Assembly: GCA_021812425.1 (NCBI GenBank) | Contig: JAKANM010000003.1 | Location: 1-34,683, forward strand | Source: a bacterium | Lineage (GTDB): Bacteria > Patescibacteriota > Patescibacteriia > Magasanikbacterales > GWA2-37-8 | Length of the DNA: 34,683 nucleotides | Reading direction: 5' to 3' | Part shown: positions 9,582-29,774 of the stretch, in pieces | Numbering within the stretch: the stretch's first letter is position 1 | How the letters are laid out: every line of letters starts with the position of its first letter | Notes under the pieces: model-generated | Told to the model about the DNA's origin: nothing | The model's input: the letters and a program-made list of their open reading frames with translations, nothing else | Databases searched by the model: none | Translations under genes and position numbers: made by a program

Positions 9582-11066
9582 ATGGAACATGAACCGATCA
9601 ACCTCCTAAACTCACTGCATCCGAAAGATTCACTAATATCCGGGGCGCCGGCGAAAACAAAACGACCAGTCTTTTTTTGGCTTTTCATTTTTATCTCGAT
9701 AATTGTGGGGGTTTTCCTAGTACGCACCATCGTTAAGACCGAGGGAAACCAATATACAAACATTCTAGAGCCCCGTAAATTAAGTTTTTTCGAAACCGTC
9801 AAAAATTTCATCTTTCAGCCGAAGAATGTCCTGATTGGACAGGATGAAGATCGGATCAACATCCTCCTGCTTGGCATCGGCGGACCCGGACACGACGGCC
9901 CTTACCTCAGCGACACAAATATTATTGCGAGCATCAAGCCCAGCACCAACGAAGTAGCATTGATATCGGTCCCGCGAGATCTTGGCGCACAGATTACCAG
10001 CCACGGCTGGCGCAAAATTAACAGCGCGGATGCTTTCGGGGAGGCTGAACAACCTGGAAATGGCGGGGAGTACGCGAGACAAATTTTTGAAAAAACTTTC
10101 AATCTTAAAATCCCTTACTATCTCCGCGTCGATTTTACCGCCTTTGAGGAACTGATTGATGAGATCGGAGGAATAAATGTTAATGTTCCAAATGCCTTTA
10201 CCGACAGCAATTACCCCGGGCCAAATTTCTCATATACTACCGTCCATTTTGACACCGGCCCCCAAACTTTGGACGGCGAACACGCCCTGATTTACGCACG
10301 CTCCCGGCACGGCAATGACGGCGAGGGTTCGGATTTCGCTCGCTCTAGACGCCAGCAACTTATCCTTGAGGCGGTAAAAGAAAAAATGCTTTCACTCGGA
10401 ACTTATGCGAACCCAACTCAGTTGAAAAAAATGTACGATTCCGCAGTCAAGCATATCAGCACCAACATGAATATCGCTGAGCTGACTTACCTAGCTTCAA
10501 CCGCTAAAAACGCGTCTGCTAGCAAAAAATTAGTTCTCGACAGCAGTAACGACGGCTACCTTATAAACACCACCGGTGAAAACGGCGCCTTCATGCTTTC
10601 GCCCAAAACTGGTAATTTTGATACAATAAACACGGCAATCCAAAATGTTTTCGGAATTGTATCCTCCAAACAAACGCCGGGCCTGATCAAAAACGATTTT
10701 GAAATTTCTTTGCCTGCTTCAAATCTGAATAAAATAAAAATTGAAATCGAAAATGGCACCTGGATCCCCGGTCTTGCCGCGCGCACTGAGAAAAAATTAG
10801 AAGACAAGGGTTATCATATTATCATGGTGAGCAACAGTCTGATCCGCCCGATTCAACACTCAGTGATCTATCTGCTTTCCGATAAGGTCAGTGTTGCTTC
10901 CACTGCTGAACTTTCGAAATTACTCCAAGCCGCCAGCACGAGGACCTTGCCTGGTTGGCTATCCGAGACCTACGACAACACCTCGACACCCGAGGACGAA
11001 ACCGGTATGAAATACAATAAAGACGCCGATATTCTAATAATTCTCGGCACTGATACTAAAGAATAG
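9582..11066 (+). CDS. LytR-CpsA-Psr (LCP) family phosphotransferase with C-terminal LytR_C domain
   Basis: N-terminal TM, INILLLG, SDT, SVPRD, KINSA, YARSR, SDFARSRRQQ; C-terminal IEIENGT-x-x-PGLA...DILIILG. Confidence 0.92.
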   Translation: MEHEPINLLNSLHPKDSLISGAPAKTKRPVFFWLFIFISIIVGVFLVRTIVKTEGNQYTNILEPRKLSFFETVKNFIFQPKNVLIGQDEDRINILLLGIGGPGHDGPYLSDTNIIASIKPSTNEVALISVPRDLGAQITSHGWRKINSADAFGEAEQPGNGGEYARQIFEKTFNLKIPYYLRVDFTAFEELIDEIGGINVNVPNAFTDSNYPGPNFSYTTVHFDTGPQTLDGEHALIYARSRHGNDGEGSDFARSRRQQLILEAVKEKMLSLGTYANPTQLKKMYDSAVKHISTNMNIAELTYLASTAKNASASKKLVLDSSNDGYLINTTGENGAFMLSPKTGNFDTINTAIQNVFGIVSSKQTPGLIKNDFEISLPASNLNKIKIEIENGTWIPGLAARTEKKLEDKGYHIIMVSNSLIRPIQHSVIYLLSDKVSVASTAELSKLLQAASTRTLPGWLSETYDNTSTPEDETGMKYNKDADILIILGTDTKE

Positions 11067-11079
11067 GGACTATGTCACA

Positions 11080-11145
11080 TATATTCTCATTCGCTCGAAA
11101 ATGTTTAAATTTATTTAAACATTTTGCTCACTCATTTCGAATATA
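11080..11145. repeat. Dispersed intergenic hairpin element, copy 1
   Basis: TTCGCTCG (11090-97) + AAAATGTTTAAAT-tt-ATTTAAACATTTT (perfect 13-bp inverted repeat, 11098-11125) + GCTCACTCA (11126-34); outer stem TATATTC/GAATATA. Same layout as 29692-29756. Confidence 0.85.
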
Positions 11146-11147
11146 GT

Positions 11148-12530
11148 ATGCCCACAAAAATTATCGACCATGACCTGCCGGTAGTCGCGCTCATTGGGAG
11201 AGTGAACGTCGGAAAATCCTCGCTGTTCAATAAACTGATTGAACAAAATCTGGCGATTGTCTCCCCGATCGCCGGCACCACCCGCACCCGCAACATCGCC
11301 GCGGCTTCTTGGCGAGGGAAACAATTCCGACTCGTCGACACGGGCGGGCTGACTTTTTCCGAAGACGTTCCACTGGAGGAAGACATCATCAAACAAACCG
11401 AGATCGCCATCAAGGAAGCTGATGTGATCGTTTTCGTTACCGATATTCAGAGCGGACTTCTGCCACAAGAAGTCGAGCTGGCGAAACGCCTGCGTACCAA
11501 AGCCAAAGACAAACCAATCCTGCTCGTCGCAAACAAAGCCGACAGCATCAACTTGCATTTACGCATCCATGAAGGTGAATGGCGAAGATTGGGACTTGGG
11601 GTACCTCTGCCAATCTCGGCTACCAGCGGCGCCAATCTCGGCGATCTACTCGACGCAATTTACAAACAGCTCGGCAAGCAAAAGCGTCTTCCCAAAAATT
11701 ATGAAGAAACCAAACCGCTCAAAGTCGCGATCATGGGTCGTCCTAATGTTGGAAAATCTTCTCTGTTTAACAAACTAATCGGCGAGGAACGAGTAATTGT
11801 GAATCCGCTTGCCCATACGACTAGAGAACCGCACGATACCCTAGTCGAGACCGAAGAGGGCCTCATCCAATTTGTTGATACTGCCGGCATCCGCCGCAAA
11901 GCCAAAGTCAGTGGTGAACTCGAGCGAATCGGCATTCAAAAAAGCATTGCCACCATTAACAAATGTGACATTGTTCTCCTTGTGCTTGACTCAACCGAAC
12001 CGATCGCTGATCAGGATCAACAACTTGCCGGTCTCCTCCGTGAACACACACGCAGTGTGATTATCGTCGTCAACAAATGGGACAAAGCCGAGGATAATTC
12101 CGACGAATTCCGAAATGAAAAAAAGAAAGATATTTATGGCTCGTTCCCCCATCTTGATTTCGCGCCGATCGTCTTCGTCAGCGCGAAGACCGGCTACCGC
12201 GTTCACCAAATTTTCCCCCTAATTAAACAAGCCTGGGAGGGACGCCAAATCGTCCTGACCGAAGAAGTTCTGAAAGATTTCCTCCAGCGCATCACCCGCC
12301 GCCGACTCCCGACCAAAGACCGCGGCGTCCGACATCCGAAAATTCTTGCGATCAACCAGCTTGGCTACAATCCGCCGATGTTTGAATTGATCATCAAATC
12401 AAACACTTCTGTCCATATTTCCTATGTTCATTACGTCAGCAACCGCCTGCGCGAGGAATTTGGATTTTTCGCCGCGCCGATCGTCATGAAGCTCAGCAAA
12501 CTCAAACACCACACCTATACTCCGCAATAA
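11148..12530 (+). CDS. der: Ribosome biogenesis GTPase Der (EngA)
   Basis: Two GTPase domains (GRVNVGKS/DTGG/NKAD and GRPNVGKS/DTAG/NKWD) plus a KH-like C-terminus. ATG at 11148 preferred over TTG at 11124. Confidence 0.96.
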   Translation: MPTKIIDHDLPVVALIGRVNVGKSSLFNKLIEQNLAIVSPIAGTTRTRNIAAASWRGKQFRLVDTGGLTFSEDVPLEEDIIKQTEIAIKEADVIVFVTDIQSGLLPQEVELAKRLRTKAKDKPILLVANKADSINLHLRIHEGEWRRLGLGVPLPISATSGANLGDLLDAIYKQLGKQKRLPKNYEETKPLKVAIMGRPNVGKSSLFNKLIGEERVIVNPLAHTTREPHDTLVETEEGLIQFVDTAGIRRKAKVSGELERIGIQKSIATINKCDIVLLVLDSTEPIADQDQQLAGLLREHTRSVIIVVNKWDKAEDNSDEFRNEKKKDIYGSFPHLDFAPIVFVSAKTGYRVHQIFPLIKQAWEGRQIVLTEEVLKDFLQRITRRRLPTKDRGVRHPKILAINQLGYNPPMFELIIKSNTSVHISYVHYVSNRLREEFGFFAAPIVMKLSKLKHHTYTPQ

Positions 12531-20021: not shown

Positions 20022-20103
20022 GCCGCGATGGCGGAATTGGTAGACGCACACGACTCAAAATCGTGCGGAGCAATCCATGAGAGTTCGATTCTCTCTCGCG
20101 GCA
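20022..20103 (+). tRNA. tRNA-Leu(CAA)
   Basis: Acceptor GCCGCGA/TCGCGGC, anticodon arm CACGA-CT CAA AA-TCGTG, variable arm GGA-GCAA-TCC, T arm GAGAG-TTCGATT-CTCTC, discriminator A. CCA is not encoded. Confidence 0.95.
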
Positions 20104-23287: not shown

Positions 23288-24078
23288 ATGGTTTCATGGG
23301 GTCTTCTGGTCGCCACGATATTTCCGTCTTTTGTAACCACAATCGTATGTTCAAAATGCGCCGCAAGCGAACCATCGGCCATTTTTATGGTCCAGCCGTC
23401 CGGCATGGTTTTAACTCGCCAATCACCAAGCGCGATCATCGGCTCAATCGCAACTACCATTCCCGGTTCAAATTTTATTTTTTCCAAATAATGGTCATGA
23501 TAATTCGGAATAAATGGCTCCTCATGAATAGCGTGCCCGACGCCATGCCCTGTAAGATCCCTGACAATTCCATAATTGCCTTGCGACTTCACGTATAACT
23601 CAATTGCTTTACCGACACTGGCAATCGAATTCCCAGGCTTTACCGCCGCAATGCCTTTTTCCAAAGCCTTGCGCGTAACATCGAGTAGCTTAGAAGTTTT
23701 TTCGGGTATCTTTCCGATCGGAACGGTCAAAGCCGTATCAGTAAAAACACCGCCGCGCGCTGGCCACTGCATCCCGATGTCGATGCTAAATATATCACCG
23801 TCTTTCAAAAAAACATTCTTGCGAGGTATCCCATGAACCAATTCTTCATTTAAGGAAGCGCAGATGGTTGCTGGAAATGGAACATCAGACGTATAAGTTT
23901 TATAACCCTTAAAGGCTGGTTTGCCACCGGCCTTCCTGATCATTTTTTCAGCCTGCTTGTCGATCTCAAAAGTTGAGATCCCGGGACGACAAAGTGCAGC
24001 GACCATTTCAAGTATCTCACCAATCCGTTTACCATTTTCGATCAAATTTTTTATGTCTTCTTCGGTTTTAAATTTCAT
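23284..24078 (-). CDS. map: Methionine aminopeptidase type I
   Basis: CAS-x-NEE-x-VHGIP, SIDIG, DTA, GHGVG-x3-HEEP, AIEPM, AHFEHT. Confidence 0.97.
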   Translation of the reverse strand: MKFKTEEDIKNLIENGKRIGEILEMVAALCRPGISTFEIDKQAEKMIRKAGGKPAFKGYKTYTSDVPFPATICASLNEELVHGIPRKNVFLKDGDIFSIDIGMQWPARGGVFTDTALTVPIGKIPEKTSKLLDVTRKALEKGIAAVKPGNSIASVGKAIELYVKSQGNYGIVRDLTGHGVGHAIHEEPFIPNYHDHYLEKIKFEPGMVVAIEPMIALGDWRVKTMPDGWTIKMADGSLAAHFEHTIVVTKDGNIVATRRPHETI

Positions 24079-24080
24079 AA

Positions 24081-24128
24081 TCGTGATAAGTTCGAGCGAA
24101 TAGAATATATGCGGCGAAGCCGATATGT
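24081..24128. repeat. Variant/partial copy of the dispersed hairpin element
   Basis: Minus strand CATATATTCTATTCGCTCGAA (24091-24111) matches copy 1 CATATATTCTCATTCGCTCGAA with a single indel. Plus strand contains a CGGC-GAA-GCCG hairpin. Confidence 0.7.
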
Positions 24129-29156: not shown

Positions 29157-29693
29157 TTATTTAGAAAAAGGAAAACCCATATGAGAAAGTAGCGCGCGAC
29201 CTTCGACTTTGTTCTTCGCGGTAGTATTGATAATCAGTTGCAGACCATGCATCTTGTCGATTTCATCCATTTTAATTTCCGGGAAAGCAACTGTTTCTTT
29301 GAAACCAATCGTGTAATTTCCCTGCTTGTCGAAACTTTTATCAGAAATACCATGGAAATCGCGGACGCGCGGGAAAGTAATTCTTGTTAATTTTTCAAGA
29401 AATTCATACATTCTTTTGCCTCGGAGCGTAACGGTAACGCCGATTTCCTGACCTTCACGAATTTTGAAGTTGGAAATAGCTTTCTTGGCGCGGGTGCGTA
29501 TTGGCTTTTGTCCAGTGATGCGCGCAATATTCTTCTCGACGTTTTCGATAAAATTTGCCTCTTTTACAAAGCGACCAATACCAGCGTTAACCACAACCTT
29601 CTTGATCTTTGGAACCTGCATGACATTTTTCATGCCAAGTTCGATCTTGAGGGCGGGAACGATTTCTTTTTTGTATTTTTCGTATAATGTCAT
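29157..29693 (-). CDS. rplE: 50S ribosomal protein uL5
   Basis: MQVPKI-x-KVVVN, ITGQKP, FKIREG, PRVRDF-x-G. Confidence 0.98.
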   Translation of the reverse strand: MTLYEKYKKEIVPALKIELGMKNVMQVPKIKKVVVNAGIGRFVKEANFIENVEKNIARITGQKPIRTRAKKAISNFKIREGQEIGVTVTLRGKRMYEFLEKLTRITFPRVRDFHGISDKSFDKQGNYTIGFKETVAFPEIKMDEIDKMHGLQLIINTTAKNKVEGRALLSHMGFPFSK

Positions 29694-29756
29694 AATTTAC
29701 TTGAGTGAGCGAAATAATTAAATTTATTTAATTATTTCCGAGCGAAAGTGAATTAT
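29692..29756. repeat. Dispersed intergenic hairpin element, copy 2
   Basis: Plus strand: ATAATTTACTT - GAGTGAG - C - GAAATAATTAAAT-tt-ATTTAATTATTTC - CGAGCGA - AAGTGAATTAT. Inverted relative to copy 1. Confidence 0.85.
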
Positions 29757-29774
29757 ATGTGAAACTATATAATA

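Follow-up and report, generated by a model that had tools for sequence, protein, structure and literature searches.

A dispersed, non-autonomous mobile hairpin repeat at start codons in Magasanikbacteria

Copies of the repeat in the window and in related genomes

The hairpin that lies between an LCP gene and der is one member of a small dispersed mobile DNA repeat of about 85 to 100 nt per copy. We found that this element is unannotated, dispersed, non-autonomous, and mobile and that its main hairpin folds better on the strand opposite the mRNA. Orthologous sites are empty in relatives, the genes downstream of the copies are diverse, and copies occur in tandem and nested within one another. 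Therefore, this is a non-autonomous mobile element that lands in the start context between T and ATG (T/ATG). The window, by which we mean the whole 34,683-nt stretch of DNA that was analyzed, is contig C10 of the source genome (G000), the tiny genome of a groundwater bacterium of the Magasanikbacteria (Patescibacteria), whose assembly of 742,093 bases in 55 contigs is 94% complete.

Two full copies lie in the window. Copy 1 (11060-11150, plus strand) sits between the LCP gene and der. Its left flank word, GAATA (11061-11065), overlaps the LCP stop codon and is repeated at 11139-11143; at the empty der site of the relative G003, this word occurs once. The first hairpin region of the copy spans 11061-11086 and holds hairpin P1 (11066-11086, GGGAC/GTC at its top). 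P1 is followed by a "guide" word, TATATTC (11080-11086), with complementarity to the two GAATA words, and then by J5 (11087-11097), the conserved 11-nt 5' side of a mismatched middle (TCATTCGCTCG). P2 (11098-11125) is a perfect 13-bp AT-rich stem-loop and represents the variable part of the family. It is followed by J3 (11126-11138), the conserved 13-nt 3' side of the middle (GCTCACTCATTTC), and by the 3' strand of a closing helix, P0, with the sequence GAATATA (11139-11145). The final triplet here is ATA, and the der ATG is at 11148. Copy 2 (29691-29773, minus strand) precedes rplE and has the flank word ATTAT (29769-29773), a reduced P1 with the guide TATAATT (29751-29757), J5 (29739-29750), P2 (29711-29738), J3 (29698-29710), and a P0 3' strand, AATTATG (29691-29697), whose ATG is the rplE start codon. 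Copy 3 (24076-24128, minus strand), in front of map (ATG at 24076-24078), retains P1, the guide, and J5, with P2 and J3 missing.

An earlier note on this DNA had described three copies. Two of them are full, with the described conserved, pyrimidine-rich flank words, perfect 13-bp stem, and 2-nt loop at 11090-11134 (plus strand) and 29702-29746 (minus strand), but the map copy is a left half only and has no hairpin. As the note had stated, the stems of copies 1 and 2 are both perfect despite differences between their arms; we counted 3 differing positions of 13 rather than the 4 of 13 reported. The span it had assigned, 11080-11145, does contain a real hairpin, and its two ends (11080-11086 and 11139-11145) pair in a closing 7-bp helix with covariation among the copies; the element itself is larger and includes the preceding hairpin at 11061-11086. 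The flanking genes are those it had named: LytR_cpsA_psr then EngA/Der, L24 then L5, and ADK then an M24 peptidase. Copies 1 and 2 are mutual best inverted repeats in the window (52 nt, 81%), and the two-part word pattern has 2 occurrences in the window versus 0 in 100 dinucleotide shuffles. Elsewhere in the window, the summed contig depth at a tRNA gene (20022-20103) was about 30-fold above its surroundings in all four metagenome DNA runs, which come from one study; this excess is probably caused by cover from other organisms with the same conserved sequence.

Copies are numerous outside the window. An iterated nhmmer search found 27 in G000 at E<0.001. The earlier note had proposed a covariance-model search for further copies, and a model built from 20 copies recovered 28 in G000 at E<=1, scattered over at least 20 contigs and not in arrays. 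The same model detected the repeat in 30 of 61 related genomes, at 0 to 31 copies per genome: 25 of 36 genomes of the same family and 4 of 24 from other families of the order carried it. Exact-pattern matches in a species-genome collection had titles that were mostly Candidatus Magasanikbacteria or Patescibacteria, and the model confirmed 61 among the 80 exact-pattern loci listed. The unconfirmed loci (Flavobacterium and others) look like chance matches. Family members are found in Magasanikbacteria and in some other Patescibacteria. Several model-confirmed copies each were also seen in public MAG records titled "uncultured Gammaproteobacteria" or "Candidatus Udaeobacter" (L154-L212; L160/L188/L190), whose taxonomic labels look doubtful. 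We rejected a phage origin, as 5 exact pattern matches in viral contigs gave 0 confirmed by the covariance model. The copies are old and diverse: within-genome pairwise identity has a median of 0.69 and a maximum of 0.95, and the two window copies found only in G000 match no other copy in the sample of 134 at more than 0.83 identity. A different repeat of about 60 nt is present in three copies on the minus strand of G000 contig C8 (oriented offsets of about 2595, 3448, and 4073), and it has CTCGCTCAC and TTCGCTC-like words in common with the hairpin element.

The repeat, which the earlier note had taken to be unannotated, corresponds to no described family that we could find. For the whole window at gathering scores, Rfam 15 returned 3 tRNAs only and nothing for the repeat. 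For 16 loci at E<=1, it returned 3 weak unrelated matches, all at one locus and none over the element. A description of the element was also not found in our literature searches on intergenic, hairpin, or miniature inverted repeats of Magasanikbacteria, Patescibacteria, or the Candidate Phyla Radiation.

Mobility is apparent from comparisons of filled and empty sites, which the earlier note had suggested looking for. Neither the der site nor the rplE site is occupied in any of the 5 relatives compared. These include G003, which is empty at both sites and has 98% amino acid identity in Der and 100% in L5. The nucleotide flanks of G000 and G003 are only 75 to 94% identical, so "recent" insertion here means since the split of these two species. 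In the reverse comparison, we took 42 copies from three genomes of the same genus, 17 of which have collinear flanks in G000. There, the site was empty in 10 cases, kept a 14-nt remnant in 1, and had a copy in both genomes in 3; the other 3 were not assignable as empty or filled. Within the metagenomes, a contig from one run skips 29697-29774 and represents an empty rplE allele. The inserts at the compared filled and empty sites carry no ORF. Tandem copy pairs exist, and in one case a copy of a variant subfamily is nested in the P2 loop of another copy. The suggestion of an unannotated dispersed mobile element was thus borne out by the empty orthologous sites, the tandem copies, and the nested copy.

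We also observed solo right-end words (..CATTTC plus 4 nt plus ATG) with the rest of the element missing, in G000 contigs C15 (minus strand, about 3084), C20 (plus strand, 24961), C25 (plus strand, 4075), and C40 (about 3226). These may be deletion remnants or footprints, and the C15 word lies where G003 has a full copy. That the words belong to a general leader motif was rejected, as right-end words outside full copies amount to only a handful.

Anatomy, covariation, and strand preference

We aligned 134 distinct copies to the covariance model. Each has the same order of parts: the small hairpin P1, a 7-nt word, J5 (11 nt), P2, J3 (13 nt), and the right end. Helix P0 arises from pairing between the 7-nt word after P1 and the final 7 nt of the element; it encloses J5, P2, and J3, and the guide is able to pair with either flank. 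P2 varies in length from 20 to about 95 nt. By eye, terminal inverted repeats are absent from the element ends, and subterminal imperfect hairpins are present. The final triplet of P0 is ATG in 99 of the 134 copies, ATA in 25, and something else in 10. This ATG opens an ORF of at least 60 aa in 91 copies, and a start lies within 40 nt in 104.

The earlier note had claimed covariation of the stem on the basis of the window copies. Among 105 aligned copies, 88.3% of cells were paired, and 21 of 24 pairs varied on both sides. The covariation score was 0.374, compared with 0.128 +/- 0.006 in shuffles, and 0 of 500 shuffles reached the observed value; slid registers scored no more than 0.12. The top of P1 covaries as well. 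Thus, the claim holds for the family.

The note had further claimed that the fold belongs to the strand opposite the mRNA, and the wobble and mismatch counts in P2, the substitutions in J5 and J3, and the RNAalifold energies all favor the antisense strand. In the sense-strand fold, J5 and J3 make up an 11x13 internal loop. Their antisense counterparts line up as G-C, A.G, G.A, U.R, G-C, A.G, G.A, U-A, A-U, which is a continuous helix with two tandem G.A pairs. The register given in the note (G.A, A.G, G-C, U.G, G.A, A.G, G-C) was found unprompted by RNAalifold from 20 copies. Of 116 copies, 62 have G.U and 49 have A-U at the U.R position; on the sense strand this corresponds to J5 position 8, where C (62) or U (49) faces an A that never varies. 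One middle G-C becomes A-U in 8 copies, and the G-C adjoining P2 becomes an antisense G.U in 14 copies, compared with 2 for the sense-strand wobble.

The stems of P2 point the same way. Beside 1501 Watson-Crick pairs, they contain 35 A.C (antisense G.U) versus 15 G.U, and their mismatches are 47 C.U/U.C versus 1 G.A. The C.U/U.C mismatches are mostly tandem, equivalent to 5'-GA/3'-AG on the antisense strand. In 48 further copies from other species, there were 13 A.C versus 4 G.U in P2 and, at the inner P0 pair, 5 C.A versus 1 U.G; the J words of this set were not counted because the search pattern fixed them. P1 has no such preference, with 18 each of G.U, A.C, and sense-strand G.A.

Energies agree with these counts for RNA. 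For the same 20 copies, RNAalifold gave -14.6 kcal/mol on the antisense strand and -10.2 kcal/mol on the sense strand, and when RNA sequences were folded singly, the antisense core came out ahead for 129 of 134 copies. DNA parameters put both strands of the der copy at -11 kcal/mol and give a slight advantage to the antisense strand of the rplE copy (-10.9 versus -9.6).

Landing site, orientation, and downstream genes

In 7 of 11 comparisons of filled and empty sites, the insertion falls at or within a few bases of T/ATG, and the others fall at another TAT/ATA step. The left flank and the right end of the element have 2 to 6 nt in common (GAATA at der, ATTAT at rplE), and the reverse complement of this common word follows P1. 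With an identity that ranges from 2 to 6 nt, the sites fit neither a duplication of fixed length nor a strict absence of duplication. Across 126 copies, the left flank matched the right-end word of its own copy at 2.22 of 4 positions and the words of other copies at 1.94 +/- 0.05; the own-word value exceeds the maximum of 2.08 reached in 500 permutations. Several copies have, as their left flank, the right-end word of a copy or remnant that precedes them. Thus, the element's own end appears to be a good target.

A T stands at position -1 of about 70% of G000 start codons, and RWWTATG occurs 1131 times in G000, only 141 of them at crude start codons. An asymmetric target together with purging of insertions within genes can explain the position and orientation of the copies. 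Shine-Dalgarno signals are nearly absent (70 of 619 crude G000 genes), despite a canonical 16S 3' end (CCTCC). The resemblance of J3 to the 16S tail raised the possibility of anti-Shine-Dalgarno mimicry, which we dropped since the 16S end is canonical and no further support was found.

The orientation in the sense of the following gene, which the earlier note had reported for its copies, is a strong tendency with exceptions: by our own tally, about 14 of the 134 copies are antisense or convergent to their neighbors. The 30 copies that have no long ORF nearby include, in this tally, about 9 between opposite-strand genes and about 5 in front of a convergent gene. Short ORFs that resemble rpmH and rpmJ by eye begin at a few others of these 30 copies. 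At one locus (L046, G009:C5), the downstream sequence resembles, again by eye, the 3' half of a tRNA gene; if it is a tRNA, the element can also precede a tRNA. We ruled out replication strand as the cause of orientation, since the element-sense strand had positive GC skew in 16 and negative skew in 11 of 27 copies and both orientations occur within one skew domain of the window. This lack of replication-strand bias argues against replication-fork-limited single-stranded DNA insertion of the IS608 kind (PMC3597680).

The genes downstream of the copies are functionally unrelated, both the 21 in G000 and the 79 in relatives. Those in G000 include glycosyltransferases, PGK, MnmA, NifU, MFS, MurB, MreB, and a serine recombinase, and the full set also includes enolase, RpoA, tRNA synthetases, ATP synthase subunits, and about a dozen ribosomal proteins. 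For 83 of 104 downstream proteins, there is no counterpart behind another copy. The earlier note had offered regulation of ribosome-related genes as an alternative. This diversity, the 83 singletons, and the empty sites rule out a ribosome regulon.

Possible movers, mechanism, and rival explanations

The earlier note had pointed to HUH/Y1 enzymes. Y1_Tnp (HUH, PF01797) gave 0 matches in the 9 genomes with at least 8 copies (G000-G003, G007, G014, G021, G023, and G034), and its matches in 16 of the 61 genomes were mostly in those with 0 to 2 copies. IS110 was found in G016 only, with a weak match in G026. No reverse transcriptase (RVT_1) was found in G000, G002, G007, G021, or G023, no integron integrase (TIGR02249) exceeded the cut-off in any of the 61 genomes, and G000 has one Xer-like gene. 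TnpB gave no match in G000; neither did Y2_Tnp, a weak blank in that its control gave no match anywhere. G000 has four paralogous large serine recombinases on the short contigs C4, C29, C30, and C31, and the C29 gene has a copy of the element directly in front of it as a leader. We rejected these recombinases as the mover, as G007, with 31 copies, has none and the copy-free G019 has 3. The note had suggested looking for nuclease or HUH genes beside the copies; clustering of neighbor genes at 190 loci showed no recurrent family (the largest cluster spanned 7 loci). A noisy motif scan showed no autonomous copy in G000. Thus, we found no known enzyme that could move the element, and a non-autonomous hairpin element is the best reading.

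Several known systems resemble the element in part. IS200/IS605 elements lack terminal inverted repeats and have short imperfect hairpins near both ends and strand-specific structure; they insert beside a short word to which an internal guide word next to a hairpin pairs (PMC3597680). Our element is like these ends and their gene-less derivatives, PATEs, in its lack of terminal inverted repeats, its subterminal hairpins, its strand-specific structure, and its guide/flank pairing. Unlike them, it has no TnpA (Y1) in high-copy genomes and no replication-strand bias, its guide lies between two hairpins, its flanks have 2 to 6 nt in common, and its total length is only about 85 nt. IS200/IS605-type elements insert on the 3' side of a tetra- or pentanucleotide of fixed sequence and duplicate nothing; here, insertion is in a T/ATG or TAT context, and the left flank and right end have 2 to 6 nt in common. 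REP/BIME repeats occur in high copy, carry a conserved word at the hairpin foot, and are probably handled as single-stranded DNA. With their RAYT (TnpA-REP), they are described as intergenic hairpin repeats thought to be non-autonomous (PMC8266576). Within that description, our element is similar as a high-copy, non-autonomous intergenic hairpin repeat with a conserved word, but it differs in having no RAYT-type gene (PF01797), in sitting at start codons in gene sense rather than after genes, and in having two hairpins and a flank-complementary word. A DDE-type MITE was rejected, as there are no terminal inverted repeats and the flank identity of 2 to 6 nt is not a fixed-length duplication. 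Mycobacterial MIRUs and Neisseria Correia elements are short, dispersed, orientation-biased intergenic repeats; MIRUs are not hairpin elements, and Correia elements are bounded by terminal inverted repeats with a TA duplication. In their general descriptions, these and the mitochondrial double-hairpin elements are like ours in being short and dispersed within operons, in being co-oriented with transcription or having two hairpins, and in presence/absence polymorphism. To our knowledge, and as far as these descriptions go, none of the three is reported to keep a start codon inside its closing helix.

We consider it probable, on balance, that the copies form a non-autonomous family of mobile start-codon hairpins that is partly guide-targeted and recombines as the folded antisense strand. 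The copies sit at the T/ATG junction, where the right end rebuilds the start context so that the gene keeps its ATG inside P0. The internal word after P1, which complements the right end and resembles the complement of the sequence to the left of the insertion, suggests that the target is chosen partly by pairing with this word. The recombining form would be the folded antisense strand, most likely as single-stranded DNA, and the middle of this strand is predicted to form an uninterrupted helix that includes two tandem sheared G.A pairs. An asymmetric target, purging of insertions in genes, and tolerance of the weakly folding strand in the mRNA would then account for the position at start codons and the orientation in gene sense. 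A more specific version, in which a guide-bearing hairpin homes to start codons with antisense DNA as the substrate and is moved by an enzyme outside the known transposases and recombinases or by a housekeeping enzyme, is one that we put forward only tentatively.

Other explanations account for parts of these data. The element might be, or have become after insertion, a cis-acting mRNA leader, in which P0 holds the start codon and controls translation or stability and P1 competes for the same AUAU word. The ATG within P0 in 99 of 134 copies (91 opening an ORF), the lack of Shine-Dalgarno signals, and the ability of the guide to pair with either flank are consistent with this idea, as are canonical promoters (TGnTATAAT) seen by eye just upstream of some copies, which would therefore be transcribed as 5' untranslated regions. 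Also consistent is the copy before L11 in G000, G001, and G007 (another genus), where changes in both arms keep the stem. However, the downstream genes have unrelated functions, most sites lack orthologous counterparts, empty sites occur in close relatives, copy number ranges from 0 to 31 within one family, the wobbles and mismatches favor the antisense strand, about 14 copies by our own tally lie outside a gene-sense context, and Rfam has no match. A leader is thus unlikely as the main explanation. A structured small RNA transcribed antisense to the 5' ends of the following genes would fit the stable antisense fold. However, every copy is followed by a different coding region, which leaves no place for a conserved promoter, and empty sites in close relatives speak against it too; we regard such an RNA as highly improbable.

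Integron attC sites fold as the bottom strand, with a base helix, a mismatched middle, and a variable terminal stem-loop, and stand before ORFs in a fixed orientation. Our element's antisense fold is similarly an imperfect hairpin with a variable terminal structure, its base helix partly covaries, and it precedes ORFs in gene sense. The folded antisense strand could accordingly be the substrate of a tyrosine recombinase, Xer-like or an unrecognized integrase, with each copy an empty cassette by an ORF start. In four copies (L077, L095, L025, and L087), the right-end word, and not the guide, matches the left flank, as a crossover in the base helix would give. Against this, no integron integrase passed the cut-off among the 61 genomes, G000 offers a single Xer-like gene, the core words RYYYAAC/GTTRRRY are absent, the copies are dispersed rather than in cassette arrays, and the inserts hold no ORF. 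We therefore find an attC-like site rather improbable, and a non-autonomous mobile hairpin stays the preferred reading.

The element sits on the translation start of essential genes, including rplE, rplK, rpoA, der, mreB, and pgk. Given this position and the absence of Shine-Dalgarno signals, it may shape their expression, and a secondary effect on translation of the following genes is possible. These results call for caution in RNA-motif discovery, as covariation before start codons mimics a riboswitch or leader; the riboswitch-like covariation here belongs to a mobile element that folds on the other strand. The presence or absence of copies provides a ready strain marker for groundwater and mine-drainage metagenomes. 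The repeat fills about 0.3% of the genome and turns over between species, even though Patescibacteria have very small genomes and few mobile genes.
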